Below, piece after piece: positions 1 to 64,000 of a DNA stretch of 64,000 bases. Origin of the DNA: an uncultured Acidimicrobiia bacterium (GTDB taxonomy: Bacteria; Actinomycetota; Acidimicrobiia; Spongiisociales; UBA11373); NCBI GenBank assembly GCA_963796115.1, contig CAWCKE010000005.1, forward strand, positions 379,455 through 443,454, in the 5' to 3' direction. Every line of letters begins with the position of its first letter. The stretch's first letter is position 1. The notes below the pieces were generated by a model. That model saw only the letters and a list, made by a program, of their open reading frames with translations. It was not told the DNA's origin and did no database searches. A program made the position numbers and the translations under genes.

Positions 1-78
1 GCCCACGAAGCAGACCCGCTCCCCGGCCAGTCGCCGAGCGGCGGCTACCACCATGAGCTCGTTGGAGGTCCAGCTCAT
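1..78 (-). CDS. CoA-transferase subunit B (3-oxoacid/glutaconate CoA-transferase family), 5' part only; continues beyond window start
   Basis: Reverse complement of 1..78 reads MSWTSNELMVVAAARRLAGERVCFVG, a typical N-terminus of CoA-transferase beta subunit. Its ATG overlaps the stop of the upstream A subunit (ATGA). Confidence 0.7.
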   Translation of the reverse strand, partial: MSWTSNELMVVAAARRLAGERVCFVG

Positions 79-971
79 CGGTAGCTCCCGTAGTTGACCG
101 GCGGGGCCCAGGCCTCGCCCGGGGCCAGCGAGGCCCAGCGCTCGGCGCCGAGCCGGGCCCGGTACTCGGCGTGGTCGGCCAGGCCGTACACCCACTCGTC
201 GAGCCAGGCTGCCACGGCGGCCGGGTCGCGGCTGATGGCCTCCCAGTCGAGGTAGAAGCGGTTGTCCCGGTCGTAGTAGCCCTGGGCGAAGGAGGGATGG
301 CAGCCCCCGGGTGCCTCGACCACCGCATCCACGATGGGAGCCGGGATCAGGGTCCGGTTGGGGTCGGACCGCACGACCGACTCGGGGACGACCTCCTCAC
401 AGACCACGATGACCCGGTGGGCGGCGAAGGCGGCCTCCTTCTGGCAGCCGAGCAGGCCCCACACCTGGGCGTCGCCGTCGGCGGTGGCCCGCTGCACGTG
501 GACGATGGCCACGTCGGGGTTGAGGGGGGGCACGGCGTAGAGCGTCTCCCCGGCGAAGGGGCTCACCATGGGGACGATGCGCGGGTTGGCGGCCGGCAGG
601 TCGCTGCCCGAGTAGGAGCGCAGCGGGAAGAAGGGGAGCCCGGTCGCCCCGGCGGTGTAGCGGCTCACCATGCCGAAGTGGCTGTACTCCTCGACCTCCA
701 GCGGTTCGGGGTCGGCGTGCTCTATCCGCCGCCGGAGGGCGTGCAGCGACCCCGCCCCCGGGTTGCCCATCCAGGAGAACACGATCCGGGAGATGACACC
801 GGCCGCCGCCAGCTGGTCGCCGATGACGTCGGGGGTCAGCCGGCACAAGGTGATGTTGCGGCGGCGCTGGCGGATCAGCTCGTGCCCCGCGGCGTGGCAG
901 ATGAGGTGGGTGAAGCCCTCGATGGCGACGCTGTCGCCGTCGGCGACCAGCCGCCCGACGGCTTCACTCAT
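75..971 (-). CDS. CoA-transferase subunit A
   Basis: C-terminal 297 aa of the 75..1742 ORF (MSEAVGRLVADGDSVAIEGFTHL...WMGNPGAG...) match the CoA-transferase alpha subunit; N-terminal extension of the ORF is GC-driven junk; translationally coupled to subunit B. Confidence 0.75.
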   Translation of the reverse strand: MSEAVGRLVADGDSVAIEGFTHLICHAAGHELIRQRRRNITLCRLTPDVIGDQLAAAGVISRIVFSWMGNPGAGSLHALRRRIEHADPEPLEVEEYSHFGMVSRYTAGATGLPFFPLRSYSGSDLPAANPRIVPMVSPFAGETLYAVPPLNPDVAIVHVQRATADGDAQVWGLLGCQKEAAFAAHRVIVVCEEVVPESVVRSDPNRTLIPAPIVDAVVEAPGGCHPSFAQGYYDRDNRFYLDWEAISRDPAAVAAWLDEWVYGLADHAEYRARLGAERWASLAPGEAWAPPVNYGSYR

Positions 972-1024
972 GCTGGCGACTTTGCTCACTGCCTCACCGC
1001 AGCACGATGCTACGGCTCGCCGCT

Positions 1025-2589
1025 TCAGCGCGCCAAGATGGTGCGGCTCTGCTCGCGCAGGTACTGCAGCAGGTAGTAGGGGCCTCCGGCCGACTTCCCT
1101 TGCGTGCCCGAGCCCTTCCAGCCCCCGAAGGGCTGGACGGCAGGCCAGGCGCCGGTAGTGGCACCCGCCCGCCGGTTGACGTAGACCACCCCGGCGTGGG
1201 TTCCCTCGAGGAAGTGGTCGATCTCGGCGGGGTCGCTCCCGTAGAAGCCGGCGGTGAGGCCGTACTCGGTGTCGTTGGCCGCGGCCAGGGCCTCCTCCAG
1301 GGAGTCCACCGGGGCCACCGCCAGCAGCGGGGCGAACAGCTCCCGCCGCCAGACCCAGGAGTCGGCGGGGGCCTCGACCACGGCGGGCAGGACGTAGTTG
1401 CCCCGGGCCAGGTCTGCCTCGGTGAGGCGACGCCCGCCGGTGACCAGGCTGCCCCGGGCCGAGGCCTCGGCGACGGCCTCCTCGAAGCGGGCCACTGCCT
1501 TCTCGTCGATCAGCGGCCCCAGGTGCACCTCCCGCCCGAGAGGGTTGCCCACGACCAGCGACTCCGTTCGGGCTGCCAGCCGTTCCAGGAACTCGCCGTA
1601 CAGGGGCGCGTGATGAACGCCCGCGAGGCGGCCGAGCACTTCTGTCCCCCGAAGCCGAAGGCCGAGCGCACCGTGCCCTCCACGGCGGTGTCGAGGTCGG
1701 CGCCTCGGCCGATGATGACCGGGTTCTTCCCGCCCATCTCACAGATGACCGGCCTGGGGTGCTCGGCCGAGAAGGATCGGTAGATGGCCATGCCGACCTC
1801 GGCGGAGCCGGTGAAGGTGATTCCCGCCAGCCGGGGATGAGAGACGAGGGCCTCCCCGGCCGGGTGCCCCGAGCCGGTCACGACTTGCAGGGCCCCTGTC
1901 GGGAGGCCGGCGTCGGAGAGTGCGTCGGCGACGAGCAGGGTGGCGAGTGTGCCGGCTGAGGAGGGCTTGAGCACCACGGTGTTCCCGGCGATCAGCGCGG
2001 CCGCCGCCGGCCCCGCCGCCAGGGCAGCCGGGAAGTTGAAGGGACTGATCACCGCCCAGACCCCGTAGGGGAGCAGCACGTCGAGCGTCTGCTCTTCGGG
2101 GGTGAGGCGGCCCATCGGCCGGGCGAACCCTTCGTGCCGCTCCATCTCGTCGCAGTAGTAGCGGATCAGCTCGGCCGCCTCCTGGGCGTCACCGAGAGCT
2201 TCGAGGCGGTTCTTCCCGACCTCGAACGAAAGGGTGGCGGCGAGCAGGAAGCGCCGCTGGTCGATGAGCTTGGCCGCGCGGCGCAGCACGGCCAGTCGCT
2301 CCGCCCATGGGGTGGCCGCCCAGGTGGGGGCGAAGGCGGCGGCCGCGCTCACCGCCTCGTCCACGTCGGAGGGGGTGGCCTGGGCGAATCTGCCGATGAC
2401 CAGGTCGCGGTCGATGGGGGAGCGTTCCACGCGCACCCCGGCGCTGCCCCGCTCCTTGCCGTCGATTCGGAAGCCGTGGGACCGGCCCAGCCGCGCCCGG
2501 GCTCGGCGGACACCGGCCTCGTAGCCGGCGTGCAATGCCTCGTCGTCTGCGGGCGTGGTGGTGTAGGTGATCGGTGCTGGATCGCCCAT
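1025..2589 (-). CDS. Aldehyde dehydrogenase, 1-pyrroline-5-carboxylate (glutamate semialdehyde) dehydrogenase-like; interrupted by a -1/+1 frameshift near 1625-1640
   Basis: Two adjacent minus-strand ORFs (1510..2715 and 1025..1639) together give a full-length ALDH (FNFP, GQKCSAASR... then VHHAPLYGEFLERL...GTQGKSAGGPYYL). The junction falls in CGCGGGCG context. Likely start is MGDPAPITYTT at 2589. Confidence 0.75.
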
Positions 2590-3373: not shown

Positions 3374-4131
3374 GTGAAACGTTTCCTGGTGCTGGCTCTG
3401 TTGGCGGGCGTTCTGGTGGCGATGCCGGCGGCCGGGTGCCGCGGTCGACGGCGATGAGGGCATGAGCCCAGGCTGCGCGGCGCTCAACTCTCCGGCGTGG
3501 GACGGGGATTACGGCGAGGGGGCCATCAACGACCTGTTCTATGCAGGAGAGGTCATCACCGCGGCTGCGTCCCTATCCACGACGGATCTCTTGGTCCGAG
3601 TGGTGGACGGTCTCGAGGTGCTGCTCCTCGTCGATACGAGCGTGGTTGATAGCGCGGACGCCCCGGGGACGGTGAGTTGGAGAGTTCCCTTCAACGGCGT
3701 GTATGCGGTCGTGTGGCGGATCGTCATGCCGAACGGGTTCTCGCGGGCGCCGCGGAGTATTGCCGCGTCCTGGGAGGTGAGTTGCACTCCGGCGGTCTGC
3801 CGCCGGCTGTTTCGGTGTGCCGTCGACCATTGTCGGCACCGGGGGTGATGATGTGCTGGTGGGGACGGCGGGGCCGGACGTGATCTCCGGGCTGGGCGGC
3901 AACGACACCATCCGCGGCCTGGGCGGGGACGATCTGGTGTGCGGCGGCAACGGCGACGACCTGCTCGCCGGGGGCGGCGGCAACGACCGTCTGCGGGGCG
4001 GCGACGGGGACGACACCCTCTTGGGCAGATGGGGGGACGACTTCCTGGGCGGCGGTGCCGGGGCCGATCTGGCCAACGGCGGCCTGGGCACCGACGTCTG
4101 TTGGAGCGAAGCCGAAACCGCCTGCGAGTAG
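3374..4131 (+). CDS. Secreted RTX-type calcium-binding repeat protein (signal peptide + unknown domain + GGxGxD beta-roll repeats), split into three frames by two indels (~3455 and ~3840)
   Basis: GTG 3374 preceded by GGAAGGGAGAAGG SD; VKRFLVLALLAGVLVAMPAAG signal peptide; 3462..3848 middle ORF; 3817..4131 ORF carries GGDDVLVGTAGPDVISGLGGNDTIRGLGGDDLVCGGNGDDLL... nonapeptide repeats. Confidence 0.55.
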
Positions 4132-4669: not shown

Positions 4670-7158
4670 GGCGCCGGTGCGCGAAAGAAAGGAGTGCGGC
4701 TAGCCGCGGGCTCTGGTAGACGGTGTAACGGATCACGACCACGGTGCCCTCGGTGATCATGACCCCCTCCCGGGGCCGGGTGGCCACCACCCGGTCGCGC
4801 TCCGCCGGGTTCGCCACCGGCACGGTCGACCAGCTCCCAGCTGAAGTCGATCTCGGTGGCCTCGCGCATGGTGCGCAGGATGGCCACCGCTTCGGCCGGG
4901 GTCAGGCCCACGAGGTCCACCATGGCCACCTCCGGCGGCCGGCCGCTGGAGACCTCCAGCGTCACCGCCTCGCCCTGACGAATCACCTCAGGGTTCTCCG
5001 GGTCCTGGGTGACCACCTCGTCCTCGGGCTCCACGGCATTGACGTATTCGACCTCCACGTTGAAGCCGGCCTCGTACAGCTCGTCGGTGGCTTCCTCGAG
5101 GTCCATGCCGACCACGTCGGGGACTTCCTCACGCGGGGTCTGGTAGTAGAGGTCCACTCCCTCCGGGTCGCGCGGGAAGTCGAGCACGGGGAGGTCCTCG
5201 GTGACGATCTCCATGTAGTCCCGCCAGATGGGGGCGGCCACGTTCGAGCCCCAGACCGTCTCGTAGTACGTGCCGTTGATCACCAGGTTCCGCATCTCCA
5301 CCTGGCTGTCGGGGAAACCCACCCACACCGAGGTGGTGTACTGCGGGATGAAGCCGATGAACCACACGTCGGTGTTGTCTTCGTGGGTGCCGGTCTTGCC
5401 CGCCTGGGGGCGCCCGATGTAGGCGTTGCCGCCGGTGCCGCTGGTGATCACCTGCTCCATGGTGTTGACCACGGCCGCCGCCAGGGCGCTGTCCACCGCC
5501 CGGGTGCGCTGGGTCTCGTGCTCGTAGACCACGTTGCCGTCGGCGTCCTCGATGCGCTCGATGAGGTAGTTGTCCACCCGCCACCCGTAGTTGGCCAGAG
5601 TCGAGTAGCCGGCGGCCATCTCGAGCGGGCTCACCGCCGAGGCGCCGAGGACGATGGCCGGCACCGAGCCCAGCGGTGACCTGATCCCCATGCGGTGGGC
5701 CGCATCGGCGATCCTGTCGGCCCCGACCTCCACCGCCACCTGGCAGAAGACCGAGTTGGTGGAGGCGATGAGCGCTTGCTCCAGCGTCCGGATGCTGCCC
5801 TCGCTGGGGCCGCCCCGGCAGACCCAGGGCTCGGAGCCCCCGTAGTCGAGGATCTGCGGGGAGGAGTCGGCCCAGTAGGAGTGCAGCGGCCAGCCGTTCT
5901 CCAGGGCCGCCACCAGGCCAAAGGGCTTGAACGCCGACCCCGGGTTGCGGCGGCCCTTGGTGGCGATGTCGTAGGTGCGCTGGCCGGCCTGGTAGTCCTC
6001 ACCGAACTCCAGCCCGGAGGCCATGACGATGGTGCCGCCGGTGCGGTTGTCCACCATCGCGATGGACCCGGTGGGACCGCCCTCACCCGGGGGGAACCAC
6101 TGCTGCAGCAGTTCCTGGGCCTGCTGCTGGAGGGCGTAGTTGACGGTGACGAAGATCCTCAGGCCCCCGCCGCCGGCGCACGCGGTGTCGTCGGCCGGGC
6201 AGCCGAAGAGGGCCCGCTTGCGCTGGAGGTAGGTGTCGCCCAGTCCGTAGATGGGGTCGTTGAGCACCGCCTCCTTGGCGGCGATCAGCACCTGGGGGGC
6301 CAGCGTCTGGAACTCCCGGTGGGGCACGGTCACCAGCGGCTCGGCCTCCGCCGCGGCCGCCTCCTCCGCGGTGATGTAGCCCTCGTCCAGCATCTCGCCG
6401 ATGACGCGGTTGCGCGCCTCGATGGGGTCGTCGGCATGCCGCCGGAGGTCGTACAGGGTGGGGTTGCGGATGGGCACGACCAGGGCCGCCGCCTCGGCGA
6501 TGGTCAGTTCGTCGAGTTCCTTGCCGAAGTACTCCTGGGCGGCCGCCCGCACCCCGTAGGCGTTGTTCCCGAAGTAGGTGGAGTTCAGGTAGAACTCCAG
6601 GATCTGCTCCTTGGTGTAGCGCCGCTCCAGTTCCATGGCGATGGCCGCCTCGGAGACCTTGCGCCGCAGGGTGGGCTCGGTGCCGATGAAGTTCTGCTTG
6701 ACCACCTGCTGGGTGATCGTCGACCCGCCCTGGGTGGTGACCCCCCCGCCGAAGTTGCCGACCAGCGCCCGGATGATGGCCTGGTGGTCGATGCCCGGGT
6801 GCTCCCAGTACTCGGCGTCCTCGGCCGAGACGACGGCCGCCACCACGATGTCGGGTATCTCCTCGAAGGGGACCGGCTGGCTGTTGCGCTCGGTCAACTC
6901 CCCGAGGAGCACCCCGTCGGAGGTGTACACCTCGGAGAGGCGGCCGACGTCGGGCAGGTCGAGGGCGAGCGAGGTGACGTCGGGGATCCACGCCCGCGAC
7001 AGGTCGTCGAGGGTCCCGTAGGCGGCGTTGCCGCCGAGAAAGGCGGCCAGGCCGAACCAGCCCGAGGCGAGCACGGCGATGCCGGCCAGCACGGCGAGGG
7101 CAATCAGCCGCTTCCCATGCCGATCCTTGCTCTCGGCCTGGTGAATGGAGATGTCCAT
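4633..7158 (-). CDS. Class A penicillin-binding protein (GT51 transglycosylase + transpeptidase + C-terminal PASTA-like domains)
   Basis: Its domain order is an N-terminal TM anchor, then a transglycosylase region (EDAEYWEHPGID...TITQQVVKQNF, RKVSEAAIAMELE), then a transpeptidase region (SAFKP, SxN, KTGT), then two PASTA-like modules. Its C-terminal 60 aa are low complexity, so the 3' end is uncertain. Confidence 0.85.
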   Translation of the reverse strand: MDISIHQAESKDRHGKRLIALAVLAGIAVLASGWFGLAAFLGGNAAYGTLDDLSRAWIPDVTSLALDLPDVGRLSEVYTSDGVLLGELTERNSQPVPFEEIPDIVVAAVVSAEDAEYWEHPGIDHQAIIRALVGNFGGGVTTQGGSTITQQVVKQNFIGTEPTLRRKVSEAAIAMELERRYTKEQILEFYLNSTYFGNNAYGVRAAAQEYFGKELDELTIAEAAALVVPIRNPTLYDLRRHADDPIEARNRVIGEMLDEGYITAEEAAAAEAEPLVTVPHREFQTLAPQVLIAAKEAVLNDPIYGLGDTYLQRKRALFGCPADDTACAGGGGLRIFVTVNYALQQQAQELLQQWFPPGEGGPTGSIAMVDNRTGGTIVMASGLEFGEDYQAGQRTYDIATKGRRNPGSAFKPFGLVAALENGWPLHSYWADSSPQILDYGGSEPWVCRGGPSEGSIRTLEQALIASTNSVFCQVAVEVGADRIADAAHRMGIRSPLGSVPAIVLGASAVSPLEMAAGYSTLANYGWRVDNYLIERIEDADGNVVYEHETQRTRAVDSALAAAVVNTMEQVITSGTGGNAYIGRPQAGKTGTHEDNTDVWFIGFIPQYTTSVWVGFPDSQVEMRNLVINGTYYETVWGSNVAAPIWRDYMEIVTEDLPVLDFPRDPEGVDLYYQTPREEVPDVVGMDLEEATDELYEAGFNVEVEYVNAVEPEDEVVTQDPENPEVIRQGEAVTLEVSSGRPPEVAMVDLVGLTPAEAVAILRTMREATEIDFSWELVDRAGGEPGGARPGGGHPAPGGGHDHRGHRGRDPLHRLPEPAASRTPFFRAPAPCRLHLTGLSCI

Positions 7159-45518: not shown

Positions 45519-46700
45519 TCACTCGGCGCTCTGCGGGTAGGGCTGGTGTTCGTGGGCGATCCGGTGGTGTCTTCGACAGAGCAGCCGCAGGTTGGCGAGT
45601 GCGGTCGGGCCTCCGTCGGCCCAGTGGGTGATGTGGTGGGCATCGCACCAGTGGGCGGGGGTGTCGCAGCCCGGGTGGGTGCAGCCCCGGTCGCGGTGGT
45701 TGAGGGCCCGGCGTAGGGAGGCGGGGACTACCCGGGTGCGCCGGCCGGCGGCGATGGGCTGGCCGTGGCGGGTGACGATCGGGGTGATGGCGGCGTCGCA
45801 GGCCAGGCGGCGCACCGCGTCGAGGGTGACCGGGCCGCAGTCCAGGTCGACTGAGGCCGTCGGCGGCGAGCTGGTCGACGCTGACGGTGACGGTGAGGTG
45901 GGGGCGTTCCCCGCCCACCTGGGGCCGGTCGGAGGAGTCGAGGTGGCGGCGGCAGATCTCCACCAGGGCGTCGGCCCGGCGCTGCTGGGGGCTGCGGCCA
46001 TCGTCGGGGTCCAGGACGGCCGGGTAGGCGAGGGAGCCGACCGCGGCCATGACCAGCGCCCCCGATTCGGGGTCCAGGTCACCGTCCAGGCGCACCATGC
46101 CCGCCCAGGTGGAGGAGAGGTGCAGGCGGCGCCGGGCGAACGCCTGCTCCGCGTCGGCCCGGGCGCCGTCCGGGTCGGCCAGTCGGCGCCAATGGGCCAG
46201 CGCCAGGGGGAACACCCGGGCCGACAGGCGGCGGGCCTGAGCGACCAGCAGGGCCTCATCCCGGGCGAACGATGCCGGAGAGGAGTCCCGGGCGGCGGCC
46301 AGTAGCCGCACCCTCGGCTCGGACAGCTCCCCAGTCGGCGAACACCTCCCGGGTGAGGGGCATCGAGCGCAGCGCCCGGGCTACGCCCACCCGGCTGCGG
46401 CACACCGGCGCCGGATCCCCGGTCCGGGCCATCAGCCAGCCGGTAGCCGAACCGAACCCCTCAACCGCCGGGATGCCCCGCTGTTCGATCCTCCCCAGCA
46501 GTGCCGCCGACCGGGCCTCCAGACAGGCCACCCGGTGGCGCACCTCCAGAAACTCCTCCACCAGGCCAACATCCGACAGCAGATCCAGCCGCGTCGGCTC
46601 GTCATCGGTGGACCGGACCGTGTATCGAGCAGGGCTCCCGCAGTCACACCTCACCGTATCAAGCCGGTACGACACGTTCGGATCGGCGCGCCGAACCAGT
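45519..46700 (-). pseudogene. DUF222 / HNH endonuclease (REP13E12-like) protein, broken into three frames
   Basis: N-terminal DUF222 pieces in ORF 46256..46954 (GFGSATGWLMARTGDPAPVCRSRVGVARAL) and 45241..46311 (RLLAAARDSSPASFARDEAL...), C-terminal HNH (HWCDAHHITHWADGGPTALANLRLLCRRHH) in ORF 45519..46403. Confidence 0.65.
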
Positions 46701-47816: not shown

Positions 47817-48372
47817 GCTCTTCGGCGAACGGTACGCGATCGACTTCGTCGGAGTCGACGATCGTCACCACAGTGCAACGATCAGAGACTGGCGAACGCT
47901 CCTTTCCTCGGAGCCTCCAGACCGCTTCGTCGGGTTCGGTCGGCGCATCCTGGCCCCGGTCCCGCGGCGTCGTTGCGGCGGTGCACGATGGCGAGTCCGA
48001 CCACCCCGCCCGGCGGTCACAGTTGGCGCTCATTCGGTACACGTTCGGCCAGGCATCCCGCATGCGCCAAGGCCTCGGAGCAATCGCAGGCAACCATGTC
48101 ATCATCTCGCAGGCCCGGGGATCACACGTCGCCTTGGTCCATCTCAAGGCAGGTTCGATTCGCGTCTCTGTGGGCCAAGAGGTGGCCGAGGGAGAACACC
48201 TTGCCGATTGCGGCAACTCGGGGAACTCGACTGCGCCGCCTCAGCACCCCACACCTCCCCGCGAGACGACCGGCGGCGCTTCCCCCGGGACCGCCTATGT
48301 CCTGGACGGCCGGGCGTTCGCCCAGAGCCCTCCTTCCTCCCGGGGTTCGCTTCCTGCCGGGCACTAACCTGA
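47764..48372 (+). pseudogene. M23-family metallopeptidase, reading frame broken at least twice
   Basis: The ORF 47795..48367 frame carries GNHVIISQARGSHVALVHLKAGSIRVSVGQEVAEGEHLADCGNSGNSTAP..., which is the M23 core up to the expected HLHF motif and is then lost. The N-terminal part, in ORF 47764..48372, is in a different frame. Confidence 0.5.
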
Positions 48373-48379: not shown

Positions 48380-49499
48380 ATGAACCAGGACCCACGCGCC
48401 GCCATCAAGGAGTTGCGCACCCGCCTCCACGACGCCCGGAGGTTCCTTTGACGTCGACGCGAAGGCCGCCGGCCTCGCGGCGCTGAGGGCGCGCGCCGCC
48501 GAACCGAACCTCTGGCAGGATCCCGACCGGGCCCGGCAGGTGACCCGTCGCCTGGCCCGTGACGAGTCCATCGTCGGCCGGGACCAGCGTCTGACGACGG
48601 CCATCGACGACGCGGAGACCCTGCTGGGCCTGGCCGAGGAAGAGGGCGATGCCCAGGCCGCCGCCGACGCCGCCGCCGAGCTGGCGGGGATCGAAGAAGA
48701 GCTGGCGGACCTGGAGCAGGAGAGCCTCTACTTCGGCGAGTACGACGACCGGGCGGCCATCTTCAGCGTGCACGCCGGGGCCGGCGGGGTGGACGCCGCC
48801 GACTGGGCCGACATGCTGCTGCGCATGTACTTGCGTTTCCTGGAGCGGCGCGGCTTCCAGGTGGAGGTGGACGAGGTCCTGGAGGCCGAGGAAGCCGGCA
48901 TCCGCTCGGCCACCCTCACGGTCCGCGGCGAGCACGCGTACGGCATCCTCTTGGGGGAGAAGGGCGTCCATCGGCTGGTGCGCATCAGCCCCTTCGACTC
49001 CAATGCCCGCCGCCACACCTCTTTCGCCGGTGTGGACGTGCTCCCCGAGGTGGAGATGGCCGAGGTGGAGATCGACCCCGAGGACCTGCGCATCGAGACC
49101 TTCCGTTCCCAGGGGCACGGCGGCCAGTCGGTGAACACCACCGACTCGGCAGTGCGCATCACCCATCTGCCCACCGGGGTCGTGGCCGCTTGCCAGGCGG
49201 AGCGCTCGCAGATGCAGAATCGGGCGCGGGCAATGGCCCTGCTGGCCTCCCGGCTGGCCGAGCGGGCCCGGCAGGAGCACCAGGCCCAGATGGATGAGAT
49301 CCGCGGCGACCAGGGGGAAGCGGCCTGGGGCCGGCAGATCCGTTCCTACGTGCTGCAGCCCTACCAGATGGTCAAGGACCTGCGCACCGACGTCGAGGTG
49401 GGCAACGTGGAGGGGGTGCTCGACGGCGACCTGGACCGCTTCGTCGAGGGCTACCTGCACTGGCGGCGGGCCCGGGAGGAGCAGGCCCGGCGCGGCTGA
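48380..49499 (+). CDS. prfB: Peptide chain release factor 2 with programmed +1 ribosomal frameshift at CTT TGA C (48446-48452)
   Basis: Frame 0 reads MNQDPRAAIKELRTRLHDARRFL and then hits the in-frame TGA. An internal SD-like GGAGG lies upstream of CUU UGA C. The +1 frame continues DVDAKAAGLAALRARAAEPNLWQDPDRARQVTRRLA... and reaches the SPFDSNARRHTS and GGQ motifs (QGHGGQSVN). Confidence 0.9.
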
Positions 49500-54680: not shown

Positions 54681-54690
54681 GGTTCGGCCG

Positions 54691-55665: not shown

Positions 55666-56655
55666 ATGGCGGCCGCCCTCCTGGCGTTCGCCCTGTCGGC
55701 CGCCATCAGCCTCGCCGTCGTGCGGCTGCCGTGGCTGGGAGCGCGCCTGACCCGGCCGGCCGGAGGCCAACGCTGGCGCTCGGACCCAGTCCCGCTGGCC
55801 GGCGGGCTCGCCATGTGTGCCGGGTACGGGGTGGCGCTGGCGGCCTTCGGTCGGTCGGCCACCGGCGTGTGGGCGGTGCTCGGGGCGGCCGGCGCTGCCC
55901 TCGCGGTGGGACTGGCCGACGATGTGCGCCCGCTGCCGCCGGTGGTCAAACTGGCCGGGCAGGTGGGCGCCGGGGTGGTGCTGGCGGCGGCCGGGGTGCG
56001 GCTGGCCCTGCCCGGTCCCGAGGCGGTCGCCTGGGCGGCGACCGTGCTGTGGGTGGTGATCGCCGCCAACGCAGTCAACATCTTCGACAACATCGACGGG
56101 GCCGCCGGGGCGGCGGCGCTGGTCGCGGCGGCGGCCCTGTGGGCCTGGTGGGGGATCGGCTCGGGCCCGGTTCCCCTGGCCTCCGCTCTGGCGGGGGCGG
56201 CCGCGGGGTTCCTGGTCTTCAACCTTCCCCCCGCCCGCGTGTTCATGGGCGATGCCGGCTCGCACTTCCTGGGGACGGCCCTGGCCGGCCTGACCGTCCT
56301 CGACGCCGGGCGGGCGGGCTCGGGGAGCGCGGTTCCGGCGACGCTGGTGGTTCTCGTCCCGGTCGTGCTGCTGGCGGTGCCGCTGTTCGACGCTGCCCTG
56401 GTGGCGGTGGAGCGGCGGAGGCACGGGCGCCCGGTCATGGCGGGCGGGCGCGACCACACCTCGCACCGCCTCCTGGGCCTCGGCCTCGGCCTCGGCCCGG
56501 TGGTGGCGCTGCTCAGCGGACTGGCGCTGCTCGCGGCGGGGGTCGCCACCCTGGCGGCCCTGGACTGGCGCTGGTTCGCCGGCGGCGCCGCCCTGCTGGG
56601 CGCCGGGCTGGCGGTGCTGGGCGCCCGGCTGGCGCGGATGGCGGTCTACGGCTGA
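55666..56655 (+). CDS. Glycosyltransferase family 4, polyprenyl-phosphate N-acetylhexosamine-1-phosphate transferase (WecA/MraY-like)
   Basis: NAVNIFDNIDGAAG and VFMGDAGSHFLG motifs; ATG overlaps previous stop (TAGATGG). Confidence 0.75.
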   Translation: MAAALLAFALSAAISLAVVRLPWLGARLTRPAGGQRWRSDPVPLAGGLAMCAGYGVALAAFGRSATGVWAVLGAAGAALAVGLADDVRPLPPVVKLAGQVGAGVVLAAAGVRLALPGPEAVAWAATVLWVVIAANAVNIFDNIDGAAGAAALVAAAALWAWWGIGSGPVPLASALAGAAAGFLVFNLPPARVFMGDAGSHFLGTALAGLTVLDAGRAGSGSAVPATLVVLVPVVLLAVPLFDAALVAVERRRHGRPVMAGGRDHTSHRLLGLGLGLGPVVALLSGLALLAAGVATLAALDWRWFAGGAALLGAGLAVLGARLARMAVYG

Positions 56656-58187
56656 ACGGGATCGTTCAACGGCTGACTGCAGATGTCGTCGAGGGGCTGC
56701 AGGTTGAGGACCTCGATGGCCTCGAGCGGGGGCAGGCTCAGGGCGGTGGCCACCGTCTCGGTGATGAAGTCACGGTCGGGGATGGGGTACCGGTCCTCGG
56801 TCCAGGCTTCGATGTACGAGGTGGGGGTCCCGACGAACTCCGGGGCGTAGGGCATGAAGCGGATGGAGACGATCTCGTCGGTGTTCACTTTGGAGAGCAA
56901 GTCGACGAACGCGGCGAGCTCGTCCATGGGCACGTCGGTGAAGACGCTGTCCTCGACGGCGGGCACGATGGTGGGGAGTTCGTGGATGAGGGTCACCGGG
57001 TCGGCCTGCTCGGCCAGGGCTTCCAGGACGCAGCGCTGGCGGTTCATGCGGTTGAAGTCGGTCGATCCCTGGCGGGAGCGGGCGTAGTAGAGGGCCATCT
57101 CGCCGTCCATGTGGTAGGTGCCCGGCTGCAGGTCGATCACCGAGTAGGTGCCGTCCACGTTGGGGTACTCCGTGTCGTAGACGCGCTCGGGGACGTAGAT
57201 GTCCACCCCGCCGATGGCGTCGATGATCTCCACAAAGCCCTCGAGGTCCACGAGGGCGTAGTAGTGGATGTCGATGCCCAGCAGGTACCCGAGCAGGTCC
57301 TTCATGGCGGTCGCCCCCGAGTTGGGCCCTGCGAACAGGTCGGGCCGGCTGAGCCCCCAGCCGTACAACTCGTTGGCGATCATGTCGAAGCAGTCCCCGC
57401 AGGCCCAGGCGCCCTGCGCCGGGTGGCCGGGCGGGATGGGGAGTTGGATGAGGTTGCGGGGGATGCCGAACATGGCGGTCCACCCGGTGGCGGGGTCGAT
57501 GGAGACCACGATCATCGTGTCGGTGCGCATGCCGCGGCGGCCCACGCCGGAGTCGCCGCCGAGTAGCAGGATGTTCACCCGGCCTTCTTCGGGGAAGACG
57601 TCGGACAGGGTGGTCGTAGTGGTCGAGGGGAGGGAACTGGTTGTGGAGGACGACCCCGGTACCGACGAAATCGGCGCCGGTGTGGTGGTGGTCACGTCCT
57701 CCAGGTCGACCTGGCCGGGATCCTGGTTGAAGTCGTGAGTCAGCAAGTCGTGGGCGAGCAGGACGCGCTGCCCGACGTAGAGGTGGGGGTAGCCGGTGGC
57801 CAGCAGCAGCAGGGTCAGCGCGCCGAGTGCCGCCAGACGGCCCGGCGTGCGGGGGCGTGAGGGCGCGGCAGCCATGTAGGCGTCGGCGGCGGCGAAGGCG
57901 CGCCAGCCCAGCAGGACGGCGTCGGCCACGGTGAGGAGGATGAGGCGGCCCGGCGTGAGGGAGAGGGCGGCGTCCAGGAGCCCGTCGCCGAAGTAGGCGG
58001 CGGCCAGCCACCAGACAGCCGGCACGGCCGCAGCGGCGGTGACTCCGAGGAGGACCCAGCCCCGCCGCTTCCGCCCGGTGTAGATCTGGCCGGCGCCGGG
58101 GAGGACGGCGGAGAGGAGGGCGGCGAGCAGGGCATTGGGCCGGCGAGAAGGGCCGGCGCCGCCTTCTGCCGGGAGGCCTGCGGGCAT
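56646..58187 (-). CDS. LCP (LytR-CpsA-Psr) family protein, second copy
   Basis: ILLLGGDSGVGRRGMRTDTMIVVSID...GIPRNL LCP core, N-terminal TM region, Ser/Thr-rich linker. Confidence 0.8.
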   Translation of the reverse strand: MPAGLPAEGGAGPSRRPNALLAALLSAVLPGAGQIYTGRKRRGWVLLGVTAAAAVPAVWWLAAAYFGDGLLDAALSLTPGRLILLTVADAVLLGWRAFAAADAYMAAAPSRPRTPGRLAALGALTLLLLATGYPHLYVGQRVLLAHDLLTHDFNQDPGQVDLEDVTTTTPAPISSVPGSSSTTSSLPSTTTTTLSDVFPEEGRVNILLLGGDSGVGRRGMRTDTMIVVSIDPATGWTAMFGIPRNLIQLPIPPGHPAQGAWACGDCFDMIANELYGWGLSRPDLFAGPNSGATAMKDLLGYLLGIDIHYYALVDLEGFVEIIDAIGGVDIYVPERVYDTEYPNVDGTYSVIDLQPGTYHMDGEMALYYARSRQGSTDFNRMNRQRCVLEALAEQADPVTLIHELPTIVPAVEDSVFTDVPMDELAAFVDLLSKVNTDEIVSIRFMPYAPEFVGTPTSYIEAWTEDRYPIPDRDFITETVATALSLPPLEAIEVLNLQPLDDICSQPLNDPVQP

Positions 58188-58299
58188 CCCATCAGCATAC
58201 GACCGGCCCGGGCGGCCGCCGGGCGTTGGCGACGTCGGCGGCTGGTCTCCGTCCGGTCGGAATCCCTAGGATGTAAGCAACTACCCCCAGCGCTGGGAG

Positions 58300-59628
58300 G
58301 GACCGTGAGACGCAAATGGTCATTGGTGGCGCTATTGGCCGTTCTTCGCTCTGATCGTCGCCGCTTGCGGTGACGACGAGGGCGAGACGACCACCAGCGC
58401 CGCGGAAACGACGACGACGGCGGCCGAAGAAACGACGACGACGGCGGCCGGAGAAACGACGACGACGGCGGCCGAGGAAACGACGACGACGGCGGCCGAG
58501 GAGCCTTTCACCATCGGGATGATCCTGGTCGGGCCGCAGAACGACCACGGGTGGAGCCAGGCGCACTACGACGCCGGGGTCTACCTGCAGGATCAGCTCG
58601 GGGTGGAGCTGATCGTCCTGGACAGTGTGAACACGGCCGACCGGCCGGAGACCACTGTGGACCAGGTGGTCACCCAGATGGTCGACCAGGGGGCAGACCT
58701 GATCTTCGCCACCTCGGACGACATGAAGGACGGCATCCTGCTCGGGGCGGAGCAGCATCCCGAGGTGCCGATGATCTGGTCGTCGGGTGACAGCGCCTGG
58801 CCCGAGGCGGGGGAGGCCTACCGGCCCGACCTGACCAACCTGGGCAACACGATGGGCAAGATGGAGTACGGCAAGATGATGGCCGGCTGCGCAGCGGCGC
58901 TCACCTCGGAGACCGGCCAGCTCGGTTACCTGGGCCCGCTGATCAACGCCGAGACCCTGCGTCTGGCCAGCTCCGTCTACCTGGGCGCCAAGTACTGCTG
59001 GGAGAACCTCCGCGCGGCGAGCGACGCCGGCACGCCGCCTGCGGGCTTCCGGGTCGACTGGATCGGCTTCTGGTTCAACATCCCCGGCGTCACTCTCGAT
59101 CCGACCCAGGTGGCCAACGACTTCTTCGACTCGGGCATCGACGTGGTGATCTCGGGCATCGACACCACCGAGGGCCTGGTGGTGGCCGGGCAGCGGGCCG
59201 CCGCCGGCGAGGCCGTCTGGGCCATCCCCTACGACTTCCGGGGCGCCTGCGACGAAGCGCCCGAGGTCTGCCTGGGCGTGCCCTACTTCAACTGGGGCCC
59301 CGCCTACAAGCGGATCGTGGAGTCCGTCATGGACGGCACCTTCGAAGCCTCCTTCGAGTGGTTCGGGCCGGACTGGGCCGACCTCAACAACGTCGACACC
59401 TCCGGCGTCGGGTTCATCAACGGACCGGCGCTCTCGGCGGAGAACGCGGAGTTGCTCGACCAGTTCATCGCCGGCCTGGCCGACGGCTCGATCAACCTGT
59501 TCACCGGGCCGCTCAACTACCAGGACGGGACCCCGTTCCTGGGCGACGGCGAAGTGGCCACCGACGTGCAGATCTGGTTCATGGAGCAGCTGCTGGAAGG
59601 CATGGAGGGAGCCAGCTCGGCGGGCTGA
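58300..59628 (+). CDS. BMP-family (basic membrane protein / nucleoside-binding) ABC substrate-binding lipoprotein; indel near 58345 inside the signal peptide
   Basis: GTG 58300 VRRKWSLVALLAVL then frame shift to FALIVAACGDDEGE (lipobox), [AAEETTTT]x4 linker, mature domain PFTIGMILVGPQNDHGWSQAHYDAG... Confidence 0.7.
58405..58500 (+). repeat. 4 x 24-bp tandem repeat (GAAACGACGACGACGGCGGCCGAR) encoding ETTTTAAE linker
   Basis: Read directly: copies at 58405, 58429, 58453, 58477 with single-base variation in the last codon. Confidence 0.85.
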
Positions 59629-59719
59629 GCACGCTCTCTCTTGGAGTGATGGGGGAAGGCGACCGCCTTCCCCCATCCGTATGGCGCCGGCAAGGCGCCG
59701 CCTCTAGCCTCCGGGCACG

Positions 59720-61178
59720 ATGAGCCTGGAACTGCGCGGCATCCACAAGCGCTACGGCGCGGTGCGGGCCACCGACGGGGTCGACCTCCGCCTGGAAGCC
59801 GGGGCCATCCACGGCCTGCTCGGGGAGAACGGGGCGGGCAAGTCCACGCTCATGAAGGTGCTCTCCGGGTTCGTCGCTCCCGACGCCGGGGAGGTGCTCC
59901 TCGACGGCAAGGCGGTGCCCCTCGGTTCCACCCGGGCCGCCATCCGGGCCGGCATCGGCATGCTCCACCAGGACCCGCTGGTCTTCCTTCCCTTCACCGT
60001 GCTCGACAACTTCCTGCTGGGCAGCGGGCGCCGGGTGGATCGGGGCGGCCGCCGCCGGCGAATTGGAGCGCATCGGGGCCCAGTTCGGCTTCCAGTTCGA
60101 CCCCAGCGCCCCGGCGCGGTCGCTGACGGTGGGGGAGCGCCAGCAGCTGGAGATCGCCCGCCTCCTCTGGCTGGGGGCCCGGGTGCTCATCCTCGACGAG
60201 CCGACGACGGGGATCTCCGCCTCCCAGCAGGAGCGCCTCTTCGCCACGCTGCGCGCCCTGGCCGGCCAGGGGATGATCGTCGCCTTCGTATCCCACAAGC
60301 TCGAGGAGGTGGAGGCCCTCTGCCAGACGGTCTCGGTGATGCGCCGGGGCAAGGTGGTGGGCGAGGCCTCCCTGCCCTGTCCCACCGAACAGCTGGTCGA
60401 GATGATGTTCGGCCGGGTGGTGGCCCCACCGCAGAAGGAGGGAGTGGCGCTCGGCGAGCCGGTGCTTTCGCTGGAGCGAGTTCAGCTCGAAGACCGGGTG
60501 GCGGCCGCCGAGTACTCCCTGACGGTGCGCGCAGGGGAAGTGATCGGCCTCGCCGGCCTCGAGGGGAGCGGCCAGCGCCCGTTCCTGCGCACCTGCGCCG
60601 GGCTCTCCCGCCCGGCGGAGGGCGTGCTGGCGGTCGGTGAGCGCGACCTCAGCACCGGCCGCTACCACGATTTCCTGGAGGCCGGGGTCCACTTCCTTCC
60701 CGCCGGGCGCCTGGAGGAGGGGCTGATCAGCGGCCTCACCATCACCGAGCACTTCCTGCTGGCGGCCGGGGCCAAGGGGCTGCGGATCGACTGGGGGGCC
60801 GCCGAGGCCGACGCCGAGAAACGCATCGCCGCCAACCTCATCGTGGGCACCCCGGCGTCCACCGCCGATGAGCTCTCCGGCGGCAACCAACAGCGGCTGC
60901 TGTTGGCGCTGATGCCCGCCGACGTGCGCCTGCTGCTCATGGAGCATCCCACCCGCGGCCTCGACCTGGAGTCGGCCGACTGGGTGTGGCGGCAGCTGCT
61001 CGAGAGGAGCCGCCGGGGCACGGCCATCGTGTTTGCCTCGGCCGACCTCGACGAGCTGCTCCGCTACAGCGACCGGATCCTGGTGTTCTTCGCCGGCAAG
61101 GTGCTGCGCGAAGTCCGGGCGGCCGAGACCAGTGGGGAGGAACTCGGCTACCTGATCGGCGGGAAGGTGGCACCGTGA
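59720..61178 (+). CDS. ABC transporter ATP-binding protein with duplicated NBDs (BMP/sugar-type), one indel near 60040
   Basis: NBD1 GENGAGKSTL in ORF 59720..60640 frame; after ...DNFLLGSG the protein continues in ORF 60063..61178 frame (LSVGERQQLEIARLL...ILDEPT; NBD2 GLEGSGQ...LSGGNQQRLLLA). Confidence 0.75.
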
Positions 61179-62227
61179 CCGTTCCCCCCGTCGTGCGCCG
61201 CGTCGCCAAGGTGCTCCTCCCGGTGGCCACCGCCCTGGCGCTGGGGGTGCTGCTGCTGATCTCGGCCGACGCTCCTCCGCTGGAGGCCTTGCGCCTGATC
61301 CTCGATGGCGCTCTGGGCAGCGCGGGCGGCCTGTCCTCGACCCTCATGGTCTGGGTGCCGCTCGTGCTGGCCGCCGCCGGGCTGGTGGTCACATTCGGAG
61401 CCGGGCTGTGGAACATCGGCATCGAGGGGCAGCTGGTCATGGGGGCGGTGGCGGGGGCCCTGGTGGCCCGCACAGTGCATGGGCCCTCGGGCCTCGTCAT
61501 CCCCTTGGTCGCCCTGGCCGGCATGCTCGGCGGGATGCTCTGGGGCCTGCTGGTCGGGGTGCTGCGCACCTCCGGCCGGGTCAATGAGATCTTCGGCGGC
61601 CTGGGCCTCGACTTCGTGGCCACCGGACTGGTGGTCTACCTGGTCATCGGGCCGTGGAAGAGAGTGGGGAGCGCCTCCACCAGCGGCACCGACCTGTTCC
61701 CCCGCGAGGCCTGGCTGCCCGGCACCGGCTCGCTGACGGCGTCCTGGGTGGCCCTGGCGCTGGCGGCGACGGCGGTGATCGTCGTCTACTTCCTGATGCG
61801 AGGCACCTACTTCGGGCTTCGCCTGCGGGCGGTGGGGCGCAATCCGCGCAGCGCCTTCCTCATGGGGATCTCCACGAACCGCTATCTGCTCGCTGCCTTC
61901 GCGGTGTGCGGGACGCTGGCCGGGCTGGGCGGCGCGCTGCACGCCACCGGCTTCCACCACAAACTGGTGCCCTCGGTGTCGGGGGGGTACGGCTTCCTCG
62001 GAATCCTGGTGGTCCTGCTCGCCGGCTTCCGGGCGACCTGGATCGCCCCGATCGCCCTGTTCTTCGCGATCATCTCGGTCGGGAGCACCCAGCTGCAGTT
62101 GCGCCTGCAACTGGACTCGGCTCTGGGCGGGGTGCTGCAGGGAGTGCTGGTGCTGTTCACCCTGCTCGCCGGCGGCTGGCAGCTGCGGCGGGCCTACCGG
62201 AGCCGGCGCGGCTCGGAAGGAGGTTGA
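61175..62227 (+). CDS. ABC transporter permease (BMP-associated, branched-chain-type fold)
   Basis: GTG 61175 overlapping upstream stop (GTGA); 8-10 TMs; WNIGIEGQL motif. Confidence 0.75.
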   Translation: MTVPPVVRRVAKVLLPVATALALGVLLLISADAPPLEALRLILDGALGSAGGLSSTLMVWVPLVLAAAGLVVTFGAGLWNIGIEGQLVMGAVAGALVARTVHGPSGLVIPLVALAGMLGGMLWGLLVGVLRTSGRVNEIFGGLGLDFVATGLVVYLVIGPWKRVGSASTSGTDLFPREAWLPGTGSLTASWVALALAATAVIVVYFLMRGTYFGLRLRAVGRNPRSAFLMGISTNRYLLAAFAVCGTLAGLGGALHATGFHHKLVPSVSGGYGFLGILVVLLAGFRATWIAPIALFFAIISVGSTQLQLRLQLDSALGGVLQGVLVLFTLLAGGWQLRRAYRSRRGSEGG

Positions 62228-62230
62228 GCG

Positions 62231-63172
62231 ATGGATGCGACCCTGGCCTCCATCGTCGCCGCCGCCAGCCCGCTCGTCTACGCGGTGGTCGGGGAGACCA
62301 TCGCCGAGAAGGCCGGTGTCATCAATCTCTCCCTCGACGGCTCCATCATGCTGTCGGCGATGGCCGGGTTCGCCACCGCCTACACCTCCGGCAGCGTGCT
62401 GCTGGGCTTCGTGGCGGCGATGCTGGTGTCGATGGTGGTGGCCCTGCTCATCGCCTTTGCCAGCATCGAACTGCGCCTGAACCAGATCGCCGTCGGCTTC
62501 GTGCTCACCCTGCTCTGCGCCGACCTGGCCTCCTTCCTGGGCAACCCTTACGTGGGCCAGCGCGTCGCCGGGGTGCCGCCGCTGGCCATACCGGGGCTGC
62601 GTGACATCCCGTTCCTGGGCACCGTCCTGTTCGAACACAACCTCTCGGTGTACGGCAGCTTCCTGGTGATCTTCGCCGCCTACTTCTTCATCTTCCACAC
62701 ACGGCGGGGCCTGGAACTGCAGGGGGTGGGGGAGCGGCCCGAGGCGGCGCACGCCCGCGGCGTCCGGGTGAACCTGCTGCGCTACGTGTACACGGTGGTG
62801 GGCGGGGCCCTGTGCGGCATCGCCGGGGCGGCCTTCTCCCTCGACGTGCTCCTCGGCTGGCGGGAAGGGCGCACCCAGAACTACGGCTGGATCGCCCTGG
62901 CCATCGTCATCTTCGGCGGCTGGCACCCGGTGCGGGGGGCGACCGGCGCCTACCTCTTCGGAGCGCTGTCGGTGGTGGCGCTCAAGCTGCAGCCGCACTG
63001 GCCGGACCTTTCCCAGATCCTGCCCATCACACCCTTCGCCCTGATGATCTTCGCCCTGCTCCTGGTGTCCCAGGACTGGCTCCGGCGCCTGGCCGACCGG
63101 TTCCCTGGCTGGCGCCGGCTGCTCAGTGGCGACTCGCCTTCGGCCATCGGCACCGCCTTCTGGCGCGAGTGA
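62231..63172 (+). CDS. ABC transporter permease (second subunit)
   Basis: 313-aa polytopic membrane protein directly downstream; GVINLSLDGSIML motif. Confidence 0.75.
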   Translation: MDATLASIVAAASPLVYAVVGETIAEKAGVINLSLDGSIMLSAMAGFATAYTSGSVLLGFVAAMLVSMVVALLIAFASIELRLNQIAVGFVLTLLCADLASFLGNPYVGQRVAGVPPLAIPGLRDIPFLGTVLFEHNLSVYGSFLVIFAAYFFIFHTRRGLELQGVGERPEAAHARGVRVNLLRYVYTVVGGALCGIAGAAFSLDVLLGWREGRTQNYGWIALAIVIFGGWHPVRGATGAYLFGALSVVALKLQPHWPDLSQILPITPFALMIFALLLVSQDWLRRLADRFPGWRRLLSGDSPSAIGTAFWRE

Positions 63173-63186
63173 GAGCGGGGGTCTCC

Positions 63187-63744
63187 ATGGCCAGGGTGGT
63201 CTGGAAGCAGCTTGGGCCCGGGGACCTGGCGGCTTTCCGGGAGTTCCTCGGCGGGCTCGCCGAGACGGATCGCCCGCTGTACGGCTTGCTGGGGGTGAAG
63301 GCCTGGTGGTGGACGCGACTGGGCGGCTGGGCCCGACCCTTGGTGATCCTCTTCCGGGGGCAGAGGGTCGTCCTCTACCAGCGGGCCTTCTGGGGGCGAC
63401 GGGCGGTGAGCCGGCGCGAGTACGGGGTGGCCGACCTGCAGCGCGTGTCGGTGCGCCGCGGCCCCCTGCTGGAGAGCGCCCGGCTCTTGTTCGCCGACGG
63501 CTTCTCCGTCCGGGTGGGCAGCCTGCCGCGGCACCAGTCCCAGCCGGTCGAGCAGTTCCTGAGGGAAGGGGCGGCTGCCCTCGATCCCGGCCGCCTGACG
63601 CCGGACCAGCTGACGAACACCTGTCTGGCCTGCGAGGCGATGGGGCTGAGCACCCGGCCGCCAGAGCAGGCGGCTCAGCCGGCCGCCCAGGAGCGGGCCG
63701 GCAGCCGGGGGATCAGCGGCGCCCAGGAGCCGTCGGGCTCGTAG
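63187..63744 (+). CDS. Hypothetical protein, possible bacterial PH (bPH_2/YdbT-like) domain; 3' end uncertain
   Basis: MARVVWKQLGPGDLAAFREF...VVLYQRAFWGRRAVSRREYGVADLQRVSVRRGPLLESARLLFADGFSVRV; last ~25 codons overlap the convergent sulfotransferase gene. Confidence 0.4.
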   Translation: MARVVWKQLGPGDLAAFREFLGGLAETDRPLYGLLGVKAWWWTRLGGWARPLVILFRGQRVVLYQRAFWGRRAVSRREYGVADLQRVSVRRGPLLESARLLFADGFSVRVGSLPRHQSQPVEQFLREGAAALDPGRLTPDQLTNTCLACEAMGLSTRPPEQAAQPAAQERAGSRGISGAQEPSGS

Positions 63745-64000
63745 CCGAAGCGCTCGAGGGCCGGCTGAGCCAGCTCGGCGAACAGGGCGCGATCGCGGGG
63801 AGTGAAGTAGTTGACCCAGTCGCCGGCCGTGCCCTTCCGCCGGCCGCTGCTGAGGTCCATCTGCCCTGCGCTCCGCCCGCCGGACATCTTCTCGAAGGAG
63901 GTGCGCTCGATGACCTCGTCCACCAGGGCCGGGGTGTGCTCGGCTCCGATGAACGAGAAGACCTGCTCGACGGCGGCATGGCGGTCGGCGAGCAGGTCCT
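63675..64000 (-). CDS. Sulfotransferase-domain protein, C-terminal part only; continues beyond window end
   Basis: RKGTAGDWVNYFTPRDRALF (Sulfotransfer_1 C-terminal RKGxxGDWKNxFT motif); reading frame open to position 64000. Confidence 0.6.
   Translation of the reverse strand, partial: DLLADRHAAVEQVFSFIGAEHTPALVDEVIERTSFEKMSGGRSAGQMDLSSGRRKGTAGDWVNYFTPRDRALFAELAQPALERFGYEPDGSWAPLIPRLPARSWAAG

Follow-up and report, generated by a model that had tools for sequence, protein, structure and literature searches.

Single-base insertions that split conserved genes in an Acidimicrobiia contig are most probably errors of the assembly consensus

The window considered here, a stretch of 64,000 nt from a 662,200-nt contig of an Acidimicrobiia MAG (NCBI, ENA), contains many conserved genes whose reading frames are broken by single bases, and it has to be asked whether these genes are decaying or whether they were broken only in the assembly. 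The initial annotation counted at least 25 such indels, a number that is borne out by the present analysis, in which 28 frame-breaking single-base events were confirmed in coding sequence, 26 of them insertions and 2 deletions, corresponding to approximately one spurious base per 2.3 kb of the window. With a probability of about 0.93, the breaks represent consensus errors of the assembly of the 662-kb contig and not gene decay.

Same-strand frame switches were located by Viterbi segmentation on codon usage, and the breaks were checked by using Pfam profiles on the stitched proteins together with DNA and protein alignments to relatives. The closest of these are a near-identical contig (L167; 98.5-99.1% nt identity over 7-27.6 kb), which together with L175 spans 97.7-99.1% nt identity to the window, and the Illumina MAG RBG_16_70_17 (GCA_001768695.1; L174; 96.9-98.5%). 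More distant short-read MAGs (L001, L053, L002, L003 and L004) were also included, along with the comparison loci L081, L083, L084 and L168-L171 for 24-45 kb, and L174 and L175 for 48-64 kb. By exact protein match, no window-identical L167 protein was found for 0-7 kb, and an adenosine deaminase query of metagenomes returned one close relative only, L087.

All of the 23 breaks firmly listed in the initial annotation were recovered, through the Viterbi frames, the stitched Pfam stretches and the relatives' alignments, at positions 0-33 nt from the junctions given there. The break considered probable in smpB was likewise confirmed by alignments to relatives, and four breaks are new, namely those in the class A PBP, in the MoaD-MoeA ORF, at the 3' end of cofD and at the stop of the Zn-ribbon gene. 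The suspected break in the DUF3499 gene, on the other hand, is absent, as this gene aligns to relatives at full length in one frame. Other candidates were also discarded: the frame switches at ftsX/smpB, cydA/cydB, MoeA/MoeA, PGM/Trm112/PGI and similar places are ordinary gene boundaries, and a candidate event at 7178 was rejected as alignment-dependent, lying upstream at a point where L053 has no gap. An apparent C4-to-C5 insertion of the window at 18682 was rejected too, since other assemblies have the window's N-terminus; the error belongs to L167 (C5 to C4).

Table 1. Frame-breaking events, the insertion at 12156 and the prfB site in the window (inserted bases in square brackets).
Feature	Position (nt)	Strand	Event	Placement or comparison
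ALDH	1611..1616 (~1613)	-	1-nt deletion; ATC-AC on gene strand, expected ATC CAC	Split ...SRAFI / HAPLYGEF...; frame logic and local translation
RTX-type secreted Ca-binding protein, first	3437	+	+1 shift	Codon-model frame 1 to 2
RTX-type protein, second	3791..3805 (~3798)	+	+1 shift, phase 2 to 0	Just 5' of HemolysinCabind repeats
Class A PBP	4812..4824	-	+1 insertion, 37 codons short of stop	blastn position 4812
lpdA-like flavoprotein	7387	+	Inserted G, gcgc[G]agg	Not in L167, L001, L053, L002
MoaD-MoeA ORF	11894	-	Inserted base, plus strand ctt[C]ggggg	
MoaD-MoeA start or shortly 5' of it	12156		Inserted G	
cydC	13361	-	Inserted base, plus strand cgg[C]gcc	Relatives' alignments
cydC	13514	-	Inserted base, plus strand gca[G]caa	Relatives' alignments
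cydD	15026	-	Inserted base, plus strand ccccc[G]gcg	Initially placed at 14991-14995
cydD	15133	-	Inserted base, plus strand agc[G]gag	Absent from five relatives and L167
cydB	16303	-	Inserted base, plus strand cga[C]cag	Relatives' alignments
NAD-dependent epimerase	20750	+	Inserted A, gacg[A]cgc	Stitched Pfam stretch and relatives' alignments
cofD 3' end	22999	-	Inserted base in GC repeat; cofD stop lost	
cofD	23457	-	Inserted base, plus strand cca[G]ccg	Relatives' alignments
DUF5719 protein	26952	+	Inserted T, cgc[T]tgc	Not in L167, L081, L084, L168, L169
69-aa Zn-ribbon gene	29032	+	C inserted directly 5' of TGA; stop lost	
GT-C/PTPS-related membrane protein	29462-29467	+	1-nt deletion, C6 to C5	Relatives' alignments
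TrkA-C/KhtT protein	36067	-	Inserted base, plus strand gggg[C]ggc	Relatives' alignments
HEAT-repeat protein	40370	+	Inserted C, gccg[C]gac	Versus L171
Serpin	45424	+	Inserted T, accg[T]gtc; loses C-terminal ...SGLVLFAGQVVDPTA	
DUF222/HNH, first	45840..45860 (~45851, approximate)	-	+1 shift	Frame logic
DUF222/HNH, second	46320..46345 (~46332, approximate)	-	+1 shift	Frame logic
M23-family peptidase	47959..47965 (~47962)	+	+1 between ...GRRILAPV and RGVVAAVHDGE...	Frameshift-aware alignment to four homologues
M23 3' end	48295	+	Inserted C, ccgc[C]tat	Absent from L174, L175
prfB	48380..49499	+	Programmed +1 site GGAGG TTC CTT TGA C, 48438-48452	
smpB	51709	+	Inserted G, gagc[G]atc gac tga; three codons 5' of stop, stop lost	Absent from L087, L170, L171, L173, L175
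Polysaccharide flippase	53886	+	Inserted G, cgcg[G]cat	Absent from L174, L175
BMP-family lipoprotein	58342	+	Inserted T inside signal peptide	Relatives' alignments
ABC ATPase	60042	+	Inserted G, G3 to G4	Relatives' alignments

Stitching across the frames gives otherwise full-length proteins, as had been proposed. Single Pfam stretches run over the junctions of ALDH (Aldedh, 14-458/461), cydB (Cyt_bd_oxida_II, 1-302/302), the epimerase and CofD, while the DUF222 profile (6-306/306) covers both junctions of the stitched DUF222/HNH protein; residues 1-815 of the stitched 815-aa PBP align to L002 in one frame. No stop codon occurs in any restored frame. In the relatives, the corresponding genes are unbroken: the MoaD-MoeA region of L001 is one ORF of 513 aa, L167 has CofD (313 aa) and CofE (240 aa) as separate, overlapping genes, the HEAT_2 gene of L171 encodes 364 aa, intact serpins of 435-436 aa are found in L168, L170 and L171, the flippase of L174 has 409 aa and the ABC ATPase has 485 aa in L170, L174 and L175. 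The same picture emerges from public protein clusters, where the lpdA-like product of the window is 441 aa long whereas 11 of the 12 other members have 452 aa, and the read-through epimerase is 365 aa long, all 12 others having 315 aa. For the RTX-type protein, no homologue was present in any relative locus compared and no NCBIfam or Pfam profile bridges the junctions. Its signal peptide lies in phase 1 and its body in phase 2, the stitched reading at 3437 being continuous, with coding statistics as the only support for both of its breaks. The DUF5719 protein is the one initially described as a secreted repeat protein.

The comparison with close relatives suggested alongside the initial annotation was carried out, and the same-species contigs and MAGs carry uninterrupted frames. 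Every well-resolved event is private to the window's assembly, both against same-species contigs at 97-99% nt identity and against the distant short-read MAGs. Each coding site in 7-27.6 kb lies in an uninterrupted frame in L167 and in all five more distant short-read MAGs, as do the events of 24-45 kb in L081, L083, L084 and L168-L171 and those of 48-64 kb in L174 and L175. L167, L175 and L174 are free of every window event wherever they cover the window, and the alignments revealed no lesion common to the window and its closest relatives. All indels between the window and L167 in 7-27.6 kb are of 1 nt. Measured against L167, intact genes have a dN/dS of 0.18, and the parts of broken genes upstream and downstream of the shifts have values of 0.20 and 0.25, respectively. 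The indels are private and the genes intact and constrained, and for this reason the breaks are read as consensus errors, a preference already expressed in the initial annotation and now strongly supported by the private indels, the purifying selection downstream and the lack of nonsense mutations.

The foremost alternative is a genuine and very recent pseudogenisation, with about 28 real frameshifts, as might arise in a mutator lineage or in one under relaxed selection, and it is judged highly unlikely. The ratio of indels to substitutions relative to L167 (~11 coding versus ~210 coding) is not absurd for unselected DNA. However, genes under decay would not be expected to be broken in one assembly only while same-species genomes are intact, nor to keep a downstream dN/dS of 0.25 instead of ~1 with restored frames free of stops, and neither nonsense mutations nor larger out-of-frame deletions accompany the frameshifts in the window. 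Mutator spectra favour homopolymer indels, unlike the 26:2 bias towards insertions outside homopolymers that is seen here. Furthermore, sister long-contig assemblies have private indels of their own, those of L167, L175 and L173 lying at other sites and breaking their own MoeA, GT4, permease, ftsX and smpB.

DUF222/HNH and M23 lie in 45.5-48.3 kb, a strain-variable region, and have no orthologue in close relatives. The first M23 break was a +1 shift in all four frameshift-aware homologue alignments. No M23 homologue was found in any relative locus compared, and no NCBIfam or Pfam profile bridges its junctions. The catalytic PHxH motif of M23 is missing in 48236-48295, and no single correction restores it. 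A few of the DUF222/HNH and M23 breaks might be genuine decay of accessory genes.

The spectrum of the events was also evaluated. Insertions outnumber deletions by ~13:1 (~93% insertions), an excess for which a binomial test of 26:2 gives p ~3e-6 by our own arithmetic, and 9e-7 for an earlier tally of 28 versus 2. Among the 21 precisely placed insertions, the run containing the inserted base has a length of 1 at 12 sites, 2 at eight and 4 at one, a distribution that matches a random-insertion null (50%, 26%, 16%, 5% and 3% for run lengths of 1, 2, 3, 4 and at least 5). The spacing of events is roughly exponential (CV 0.83), local GC does not differ from background, the composition of the inserted bases is genome-like, and no shared motif was found at 22 oriented sites. 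Neither gene function nor coding status makes a difference; one event lies at the start of a gene or between genes (12156), and two lie exactly at stop codons (29032 and 51709). The signature is thus an excess of single-base insertions placed as though at random, and not one of homopolymer runs. As side observations, the insertion at 12156 is of the same type but lies in no clear reading frame, and an enrichment of GC/CG dinucleotides beside insertions is visible by eye, which depends on gap placement at few sites and on which no claim is based.

The initial annotation had instead described a homopolymer signature with junctions in G/C runs. The corresponding explanation, in which a long-read platform miscounts homopolymer lengths in the classic manner, is hardly credible given the random-null run lengths, with 12 of the 21 placed insertions flanked by different bases and eight making a run of 2. 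One of the junctions assigned to such runs holds, the deletion at 29462-29467, which is the sole classic homopolymer event; the other two do not, because the events lie 12 nt (7387, against ~7375) and ~30 nt (15026, against 14991-14995) from the GGGGG runs. The event at 60042 and the own error of L167 at 18682 also have the form of run-length changes, yet at most 1 of the 265 G/C runs of at least 5 bases in the window carries an event. With more than 700 G/C runs of at least 4 bases, some run will be found near any junction by chance.

It is scarcely conceivable that the extra bases are real, with ~26 +1 insertions tolerated or decoded, for instance through widespread recoding, or, in a weaker version, with a few breaks in 45.5-48.3 kb being decay. 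The window does hold one +1 site, in prfB at 48446-48452, which is identical in six relatives, the Illumina MAG included; it is a genuine programmed frameshift and no error, and it serves as a positive control. Programmed or tolerated +1 frameshifting at the remaining sites has a negligible probability, even though nearly all events take the same +1 correction and a genuine site lies within the window, because the sites have no common motif and no 0-frame stop (the nearest at least 10 codons off), are not conserved in any relative, and would require two shifts each in cydC and cydD. Like the prfB site, the other 28 sites yield the protein upon correction, but none has the CTT TGA C with an upstream GGAGG, conserved in every relative, that marks prfB.

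Mycobacterium leprae is the known case of pseudogenes formed by reductive evolution. The window resembles it in having many frameshifted genes in one region, and differs from it in showing no nonsense mutations, deletions or relaxed selection, in lesions that are not common to the closest relatives, and in only one or two lesions per gene. Watson and Warr, in 2019, reportedly drew attention to spurious pseudogenes produced by indel errors of assembly or consensus. Usual accounts of such errors emphasise deletions in homopolymers for nanopore, and indels in homopolymers for HiFi, 454 and Ion Torrent. Near-identical genomes often differ in pseudogene counts through platform, assembler and coverage (Cooley and Wright, 2024, PMC11017572), and in nanopore data indels are the dominant error type, being worst at low coverage (Cuscó et al., 2021, PMC8103633). 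The window shares with the spurious pseudogenes of long-read or low-coverage assemblies the splitting of conserved genes by single-base indels, the return to full length upon stitching, the differences in broken genes between near-identical genomes and the different errors of sister assemblies. Unlike the usual assembly errors, those of the window are mostly insertions without a link to homopolymers.

In the preferred reading of consensus errors, the source assembly is very probably a long-read one, and we infer the sequencing technology and a low-coverage cause. Spurious single bases would have been written into the consensus, and a base dropped twice, each indel shifting the frame of an otherwise intact gene under selection; the errors would be random single-base insertions and not classic homopolymer miscounts. 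Such an excess of insertions outside homopolymers departs from the textbook profile of residual errors in polished nanopore or HiFi assemblies.

The importance of these findings is practical and not biological. Gene calls, domain architectures and novelty claims in the window, and probably in the whole 662-kb contig, need a frame-corrected sequence, and correction tools or filters restricted to homopolymers would miss most such errors. Artefact ORFs include the artificial fusion of cofD to cofE created by the insertion at 22999, a 789-aa "Zn-ribbon/GT-C" ORF and a 1481-aa ORF starting in cydB, while the serpin, the lpdA-like protein, the epimerase and smpB appear as truncated or N-terminally altered artefact proteins. 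Aberrant products already sit in public protein collections, those of the epimerase (365 aa) and the lpdA-like gene (441 aa) being recorded from the 662,200-nt contig; their presence in public databases rules out deliberately added synthetic noise.

The frame breaks in the window are an artefact of its assembly, not biology. The initial annotation had set consensus error against massive pseudogenisation, and error proves right: the events are private to this record, dN/dS is low downstream of them, the lesions are single-base only and a genuine frameshift, in prfB, is conserved. Same-strand frame switches were listed from a Viterbi segmentation of the six frames by codon usage. In total, 28 frame-breaking events were established in coding sequences, 26 insertions and 2 deletions. 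Stitched across frames, the segments yield proteins free of stops. One Pfam HMM stretch crosses the junction in ALDH (profile 14-458/461), cydB (1-302/302), the epimerase (GDP_Man_Dehyd, 1-331/332) and CofD, and the DUF222 profile (6-306/306) crosses two. The stitched PBP aligns in a single frame to the short-read MAG L002 across all 815 residues, while 4/4 homologues need a +1 shift in M23 at 47,959-47,965. The two shifts in the RTX gene, for which no homologue was found in the loci compared, are indicated by the codon model (best frame 1, then 2, then 0). All 23 breaks firmly listed in the initial annotation were recovered, and the probable one in smpB was confirmed, its position (51,709) being three codons short of the stop; that suspected in the DUF3499 gene was discarded, the protein aligning in one frame over its full length. 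Four further breaks affect PBP, MoaD-MoeA, the Zn-ribbon stop and the cofD 3' end, the last creating a false CofD-CofE fusion. Ordinary gene boundaries (ALDH/CoA-transferase, cydA/B, cydB/D, cydD/C, MoeA/MoeA, CofE/Fpg, PGM/Trm112/PGI and ftsX/smpB, among others) were set aside, as was position 18,682, where the same-species contig L167 is wrong instead and the window's LytR N-terminus is common to other assemblies.

The nearest relatives of the window (72% G+C) in a genome scan were uncultured Acidimicrobiia MAGs. A scan with CydA returned the short-read MAGs L001, L053, L002, L003 and L004, syntenic with 6.7-25 kb, L001 at 86-87% nucleotide identity; L081, L083, L084 and L168-L171 were added through protein searches and contig look-ups.

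Same-species comparators and features of the window, with their coordinates
Item	Description	Identity to window	Window positions
L167	ENA contig, same species	98.5-99.1%	7,058-27,615
L175	same ENA assembly as L167, same species	97.7%	48,239-64,000
L174	Illumina MAG RBG_16_70_17, same species	96.9-98.5%	
MoaD-MoeA	one ORF when frame-corrected (513 aa in L001)		10,627-12,222
Spurious ORF	1481 aa, starting in cydB		12,605-17,050
Spurious ORF	789 aa, starting at Zn-ribbon gene		28,825-31,194
Region without exchanger	no Na+/H+ exchanger or second TrkA-C gene		35,708-36,303
HEAT-repeat gene			40,177-41,273
Strain-variable segment	between serpin and prfB		45,500-48,240
prfB	canonical programmed +1 shift, reading ATG...CGG AGG TTC CTT TGA C		48,380-49,499
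prfB +1 site	GGAGG TTC CTT TGA C		48,438-48,452
prfB shift site	CTT TGA C		48,446-48,452
tmRNA gene	full-length, just downstream of smpB		51,903-52,255
BMP lipoprotein linker	short tandem repeat, Thr/Ala/Glu-rich		58,400-58,480

Against L167, all indels of the window are single-base, and wherever a coding sequence of the window carries an additional base, that base is absent in L167 and in the more distant short-read MAGs; the extra bases at 24-45 kb and 48-64 kb are likewise absent in relatives. No event is common to the window and any relative, genomes only 1-3% divergent included. In public 90% clusters, the epimerase product has 365 aa in the window vs 315 aa in 12/12 other members, and the lpdA-like product 441 aa vs 452 aa in 11/12. 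The long contigs L167, L175 and L173, which belong to other public assemblies of this or a related species, bear Flye-style 'contig_N' names and come from ENA analyses ERZ25039554 and ERZ25039461, each have private single-base indels of their own (L167 at w11453, w12630 and w18682; L175 at w56321, w62701 and w51901; L173 at w50607 and w51432; w, window coordinate), which fragment MoeA, the cydC stop, the LytR N-terminus, GT4, an ABC permease, ftsX and smpB. The problem thus extends beyond the window's record. No private indels of this kind were seen in the Illumina and MEGAHIT/SPAdes relatives.

Programmed recoding is very unlikely: the oriented event contexts have no motif in common, the nearest 0-frame stop lies 10 to >1,000 codons away, and there is no recoding signature at these sites. 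In prfB an SD-like GGAGG lies three nt upstream of the shift, and six relatives have the identical site; thus a real frameshift is conserved here while the other sites are not. The prfB shift had escaped the initial annotation and has to be left untouched when errors are corrected. The tmRNA gene (Rfam RF00023, 155.8 bits, model positions 1-374/374; tag peptide AEDNFALAA) appears free of indel damage.

Massive pseudogenisation would leave other traces, as the dN/dS of inactivated genes is expected to drift towards 1. Once the extra bases are taken out, comparison with L167 yields dN/dS values of 0.20 upstream and 0.25 downstream of the shifts, with 0.18 for unbroken genes, and no in-frame stops appear. 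No nonsense mutations or larger out-of-frame deletions were found in the window. Real decay is possible for the accessory genes DUF222/HNH and M23, which lie in the strain-variable segment, where gene content is unlike that of all close relatives; the catalytic PHxH motif of M23 is not restorable by one correction. The artefact fits published accounts that near-identical genomes differ in pseudogene counts through platform, assembler and coverage (PMC11017572), and that nanopore consensus errors are mostly indels, above all at low coverage (PMC8103633).

The homopolymer rationale offered initially does not hold. With comparators of >=97% identity, 21 insertions were placed exactly: 12/21 have no identical base on either side (gacg[A]cgc, gca[G]caa, cca[G]ccg and accg[T]gtc, for example), 8/21 create a 2-run and 1/21 a 4-run. 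For random insertion, simulated with weighting by composition, runs of 1, 2, 3, 4 and >=5 make up 50%, 26%, 16%, 5% and 3%, so there is no homopolymer enrichment. G/C runs are so numerous (713 of exactly four bases, 265 of five or more) that one falls close to any junction by chance; the breaks assigned to GGGGG at ~7375 and 14991-14995 actually lie at 7387 and 15026. The deletion at 29,462-29,467 (C6 to C5) does stand as a classic miscount, the only one in the window. What stands out is the direction, insertions exceeding deletions by 26 to 2 (binomial p ~3e-6; an earlier count gave 9e-7). With 18,682 removed, the inserted bases (G 10, C 7, T 3, A 1) are near genome composition; spacing is roughly exponential (CV 0.83) and local GC does not differ from background. 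The few private errors of the sister assembly are balanced (3 insertions, 3 deletions), and the insertion bias is therefore specific to the window's assembly. A low-coverage long-read consensus or polishing artefact is the obvious candidate source.

Exact look-ups found the window's intact proteins, such as AhcY, CydA and a GT2, and its aberrant frameshift products in the public collection, all from one 662,200-nt NCBI and ENA contig without protein accessions; a contig of this length, for a soil-type MAG of high GC, points to a probable long-read assembly. At 72% GC few stops occur out of frame, and the frameshifts thereby open very long spurious ORFs, which could pass for novel giant or fusion proteins. 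The artefact matters only since all downstream gene calls in the window hinge on its correction, and so do the aberrant proteins that have already been deposited from it.

In L001, as in the window after frame correction, a MoaD/ThiS-like domain ending in AVGGG shares one ORF with MoeA, which suggests a natural MoaD-MoeA fusion, followed by another MoeA that is joined to a PBP-like domain. In the strain-variable segment the window carries DUF222/HNH, an SRPBCC-like ORF, a 145-aa ORF and the M23 peptidase. In L170 and L171 a PEMT-like gene takes this place, in L174 a hydrolase and in L175 a histidine-kinase fragment. From 48,239, within the M23 3' end, the window is again homologous to L174 and L175. 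The HEAT-repeat gene occurs in the window, L171 and L084 but not in L168 and L169. The Na+/H+ exchanger and second TrkA-C gene, lacking in the window, L168 and L169, lie beside ahcY in L083 and L084. The repeat copy number of the BMP linker is strain-variable, its length in the window being +24 nt vs L174 and -21 nt vs L175.
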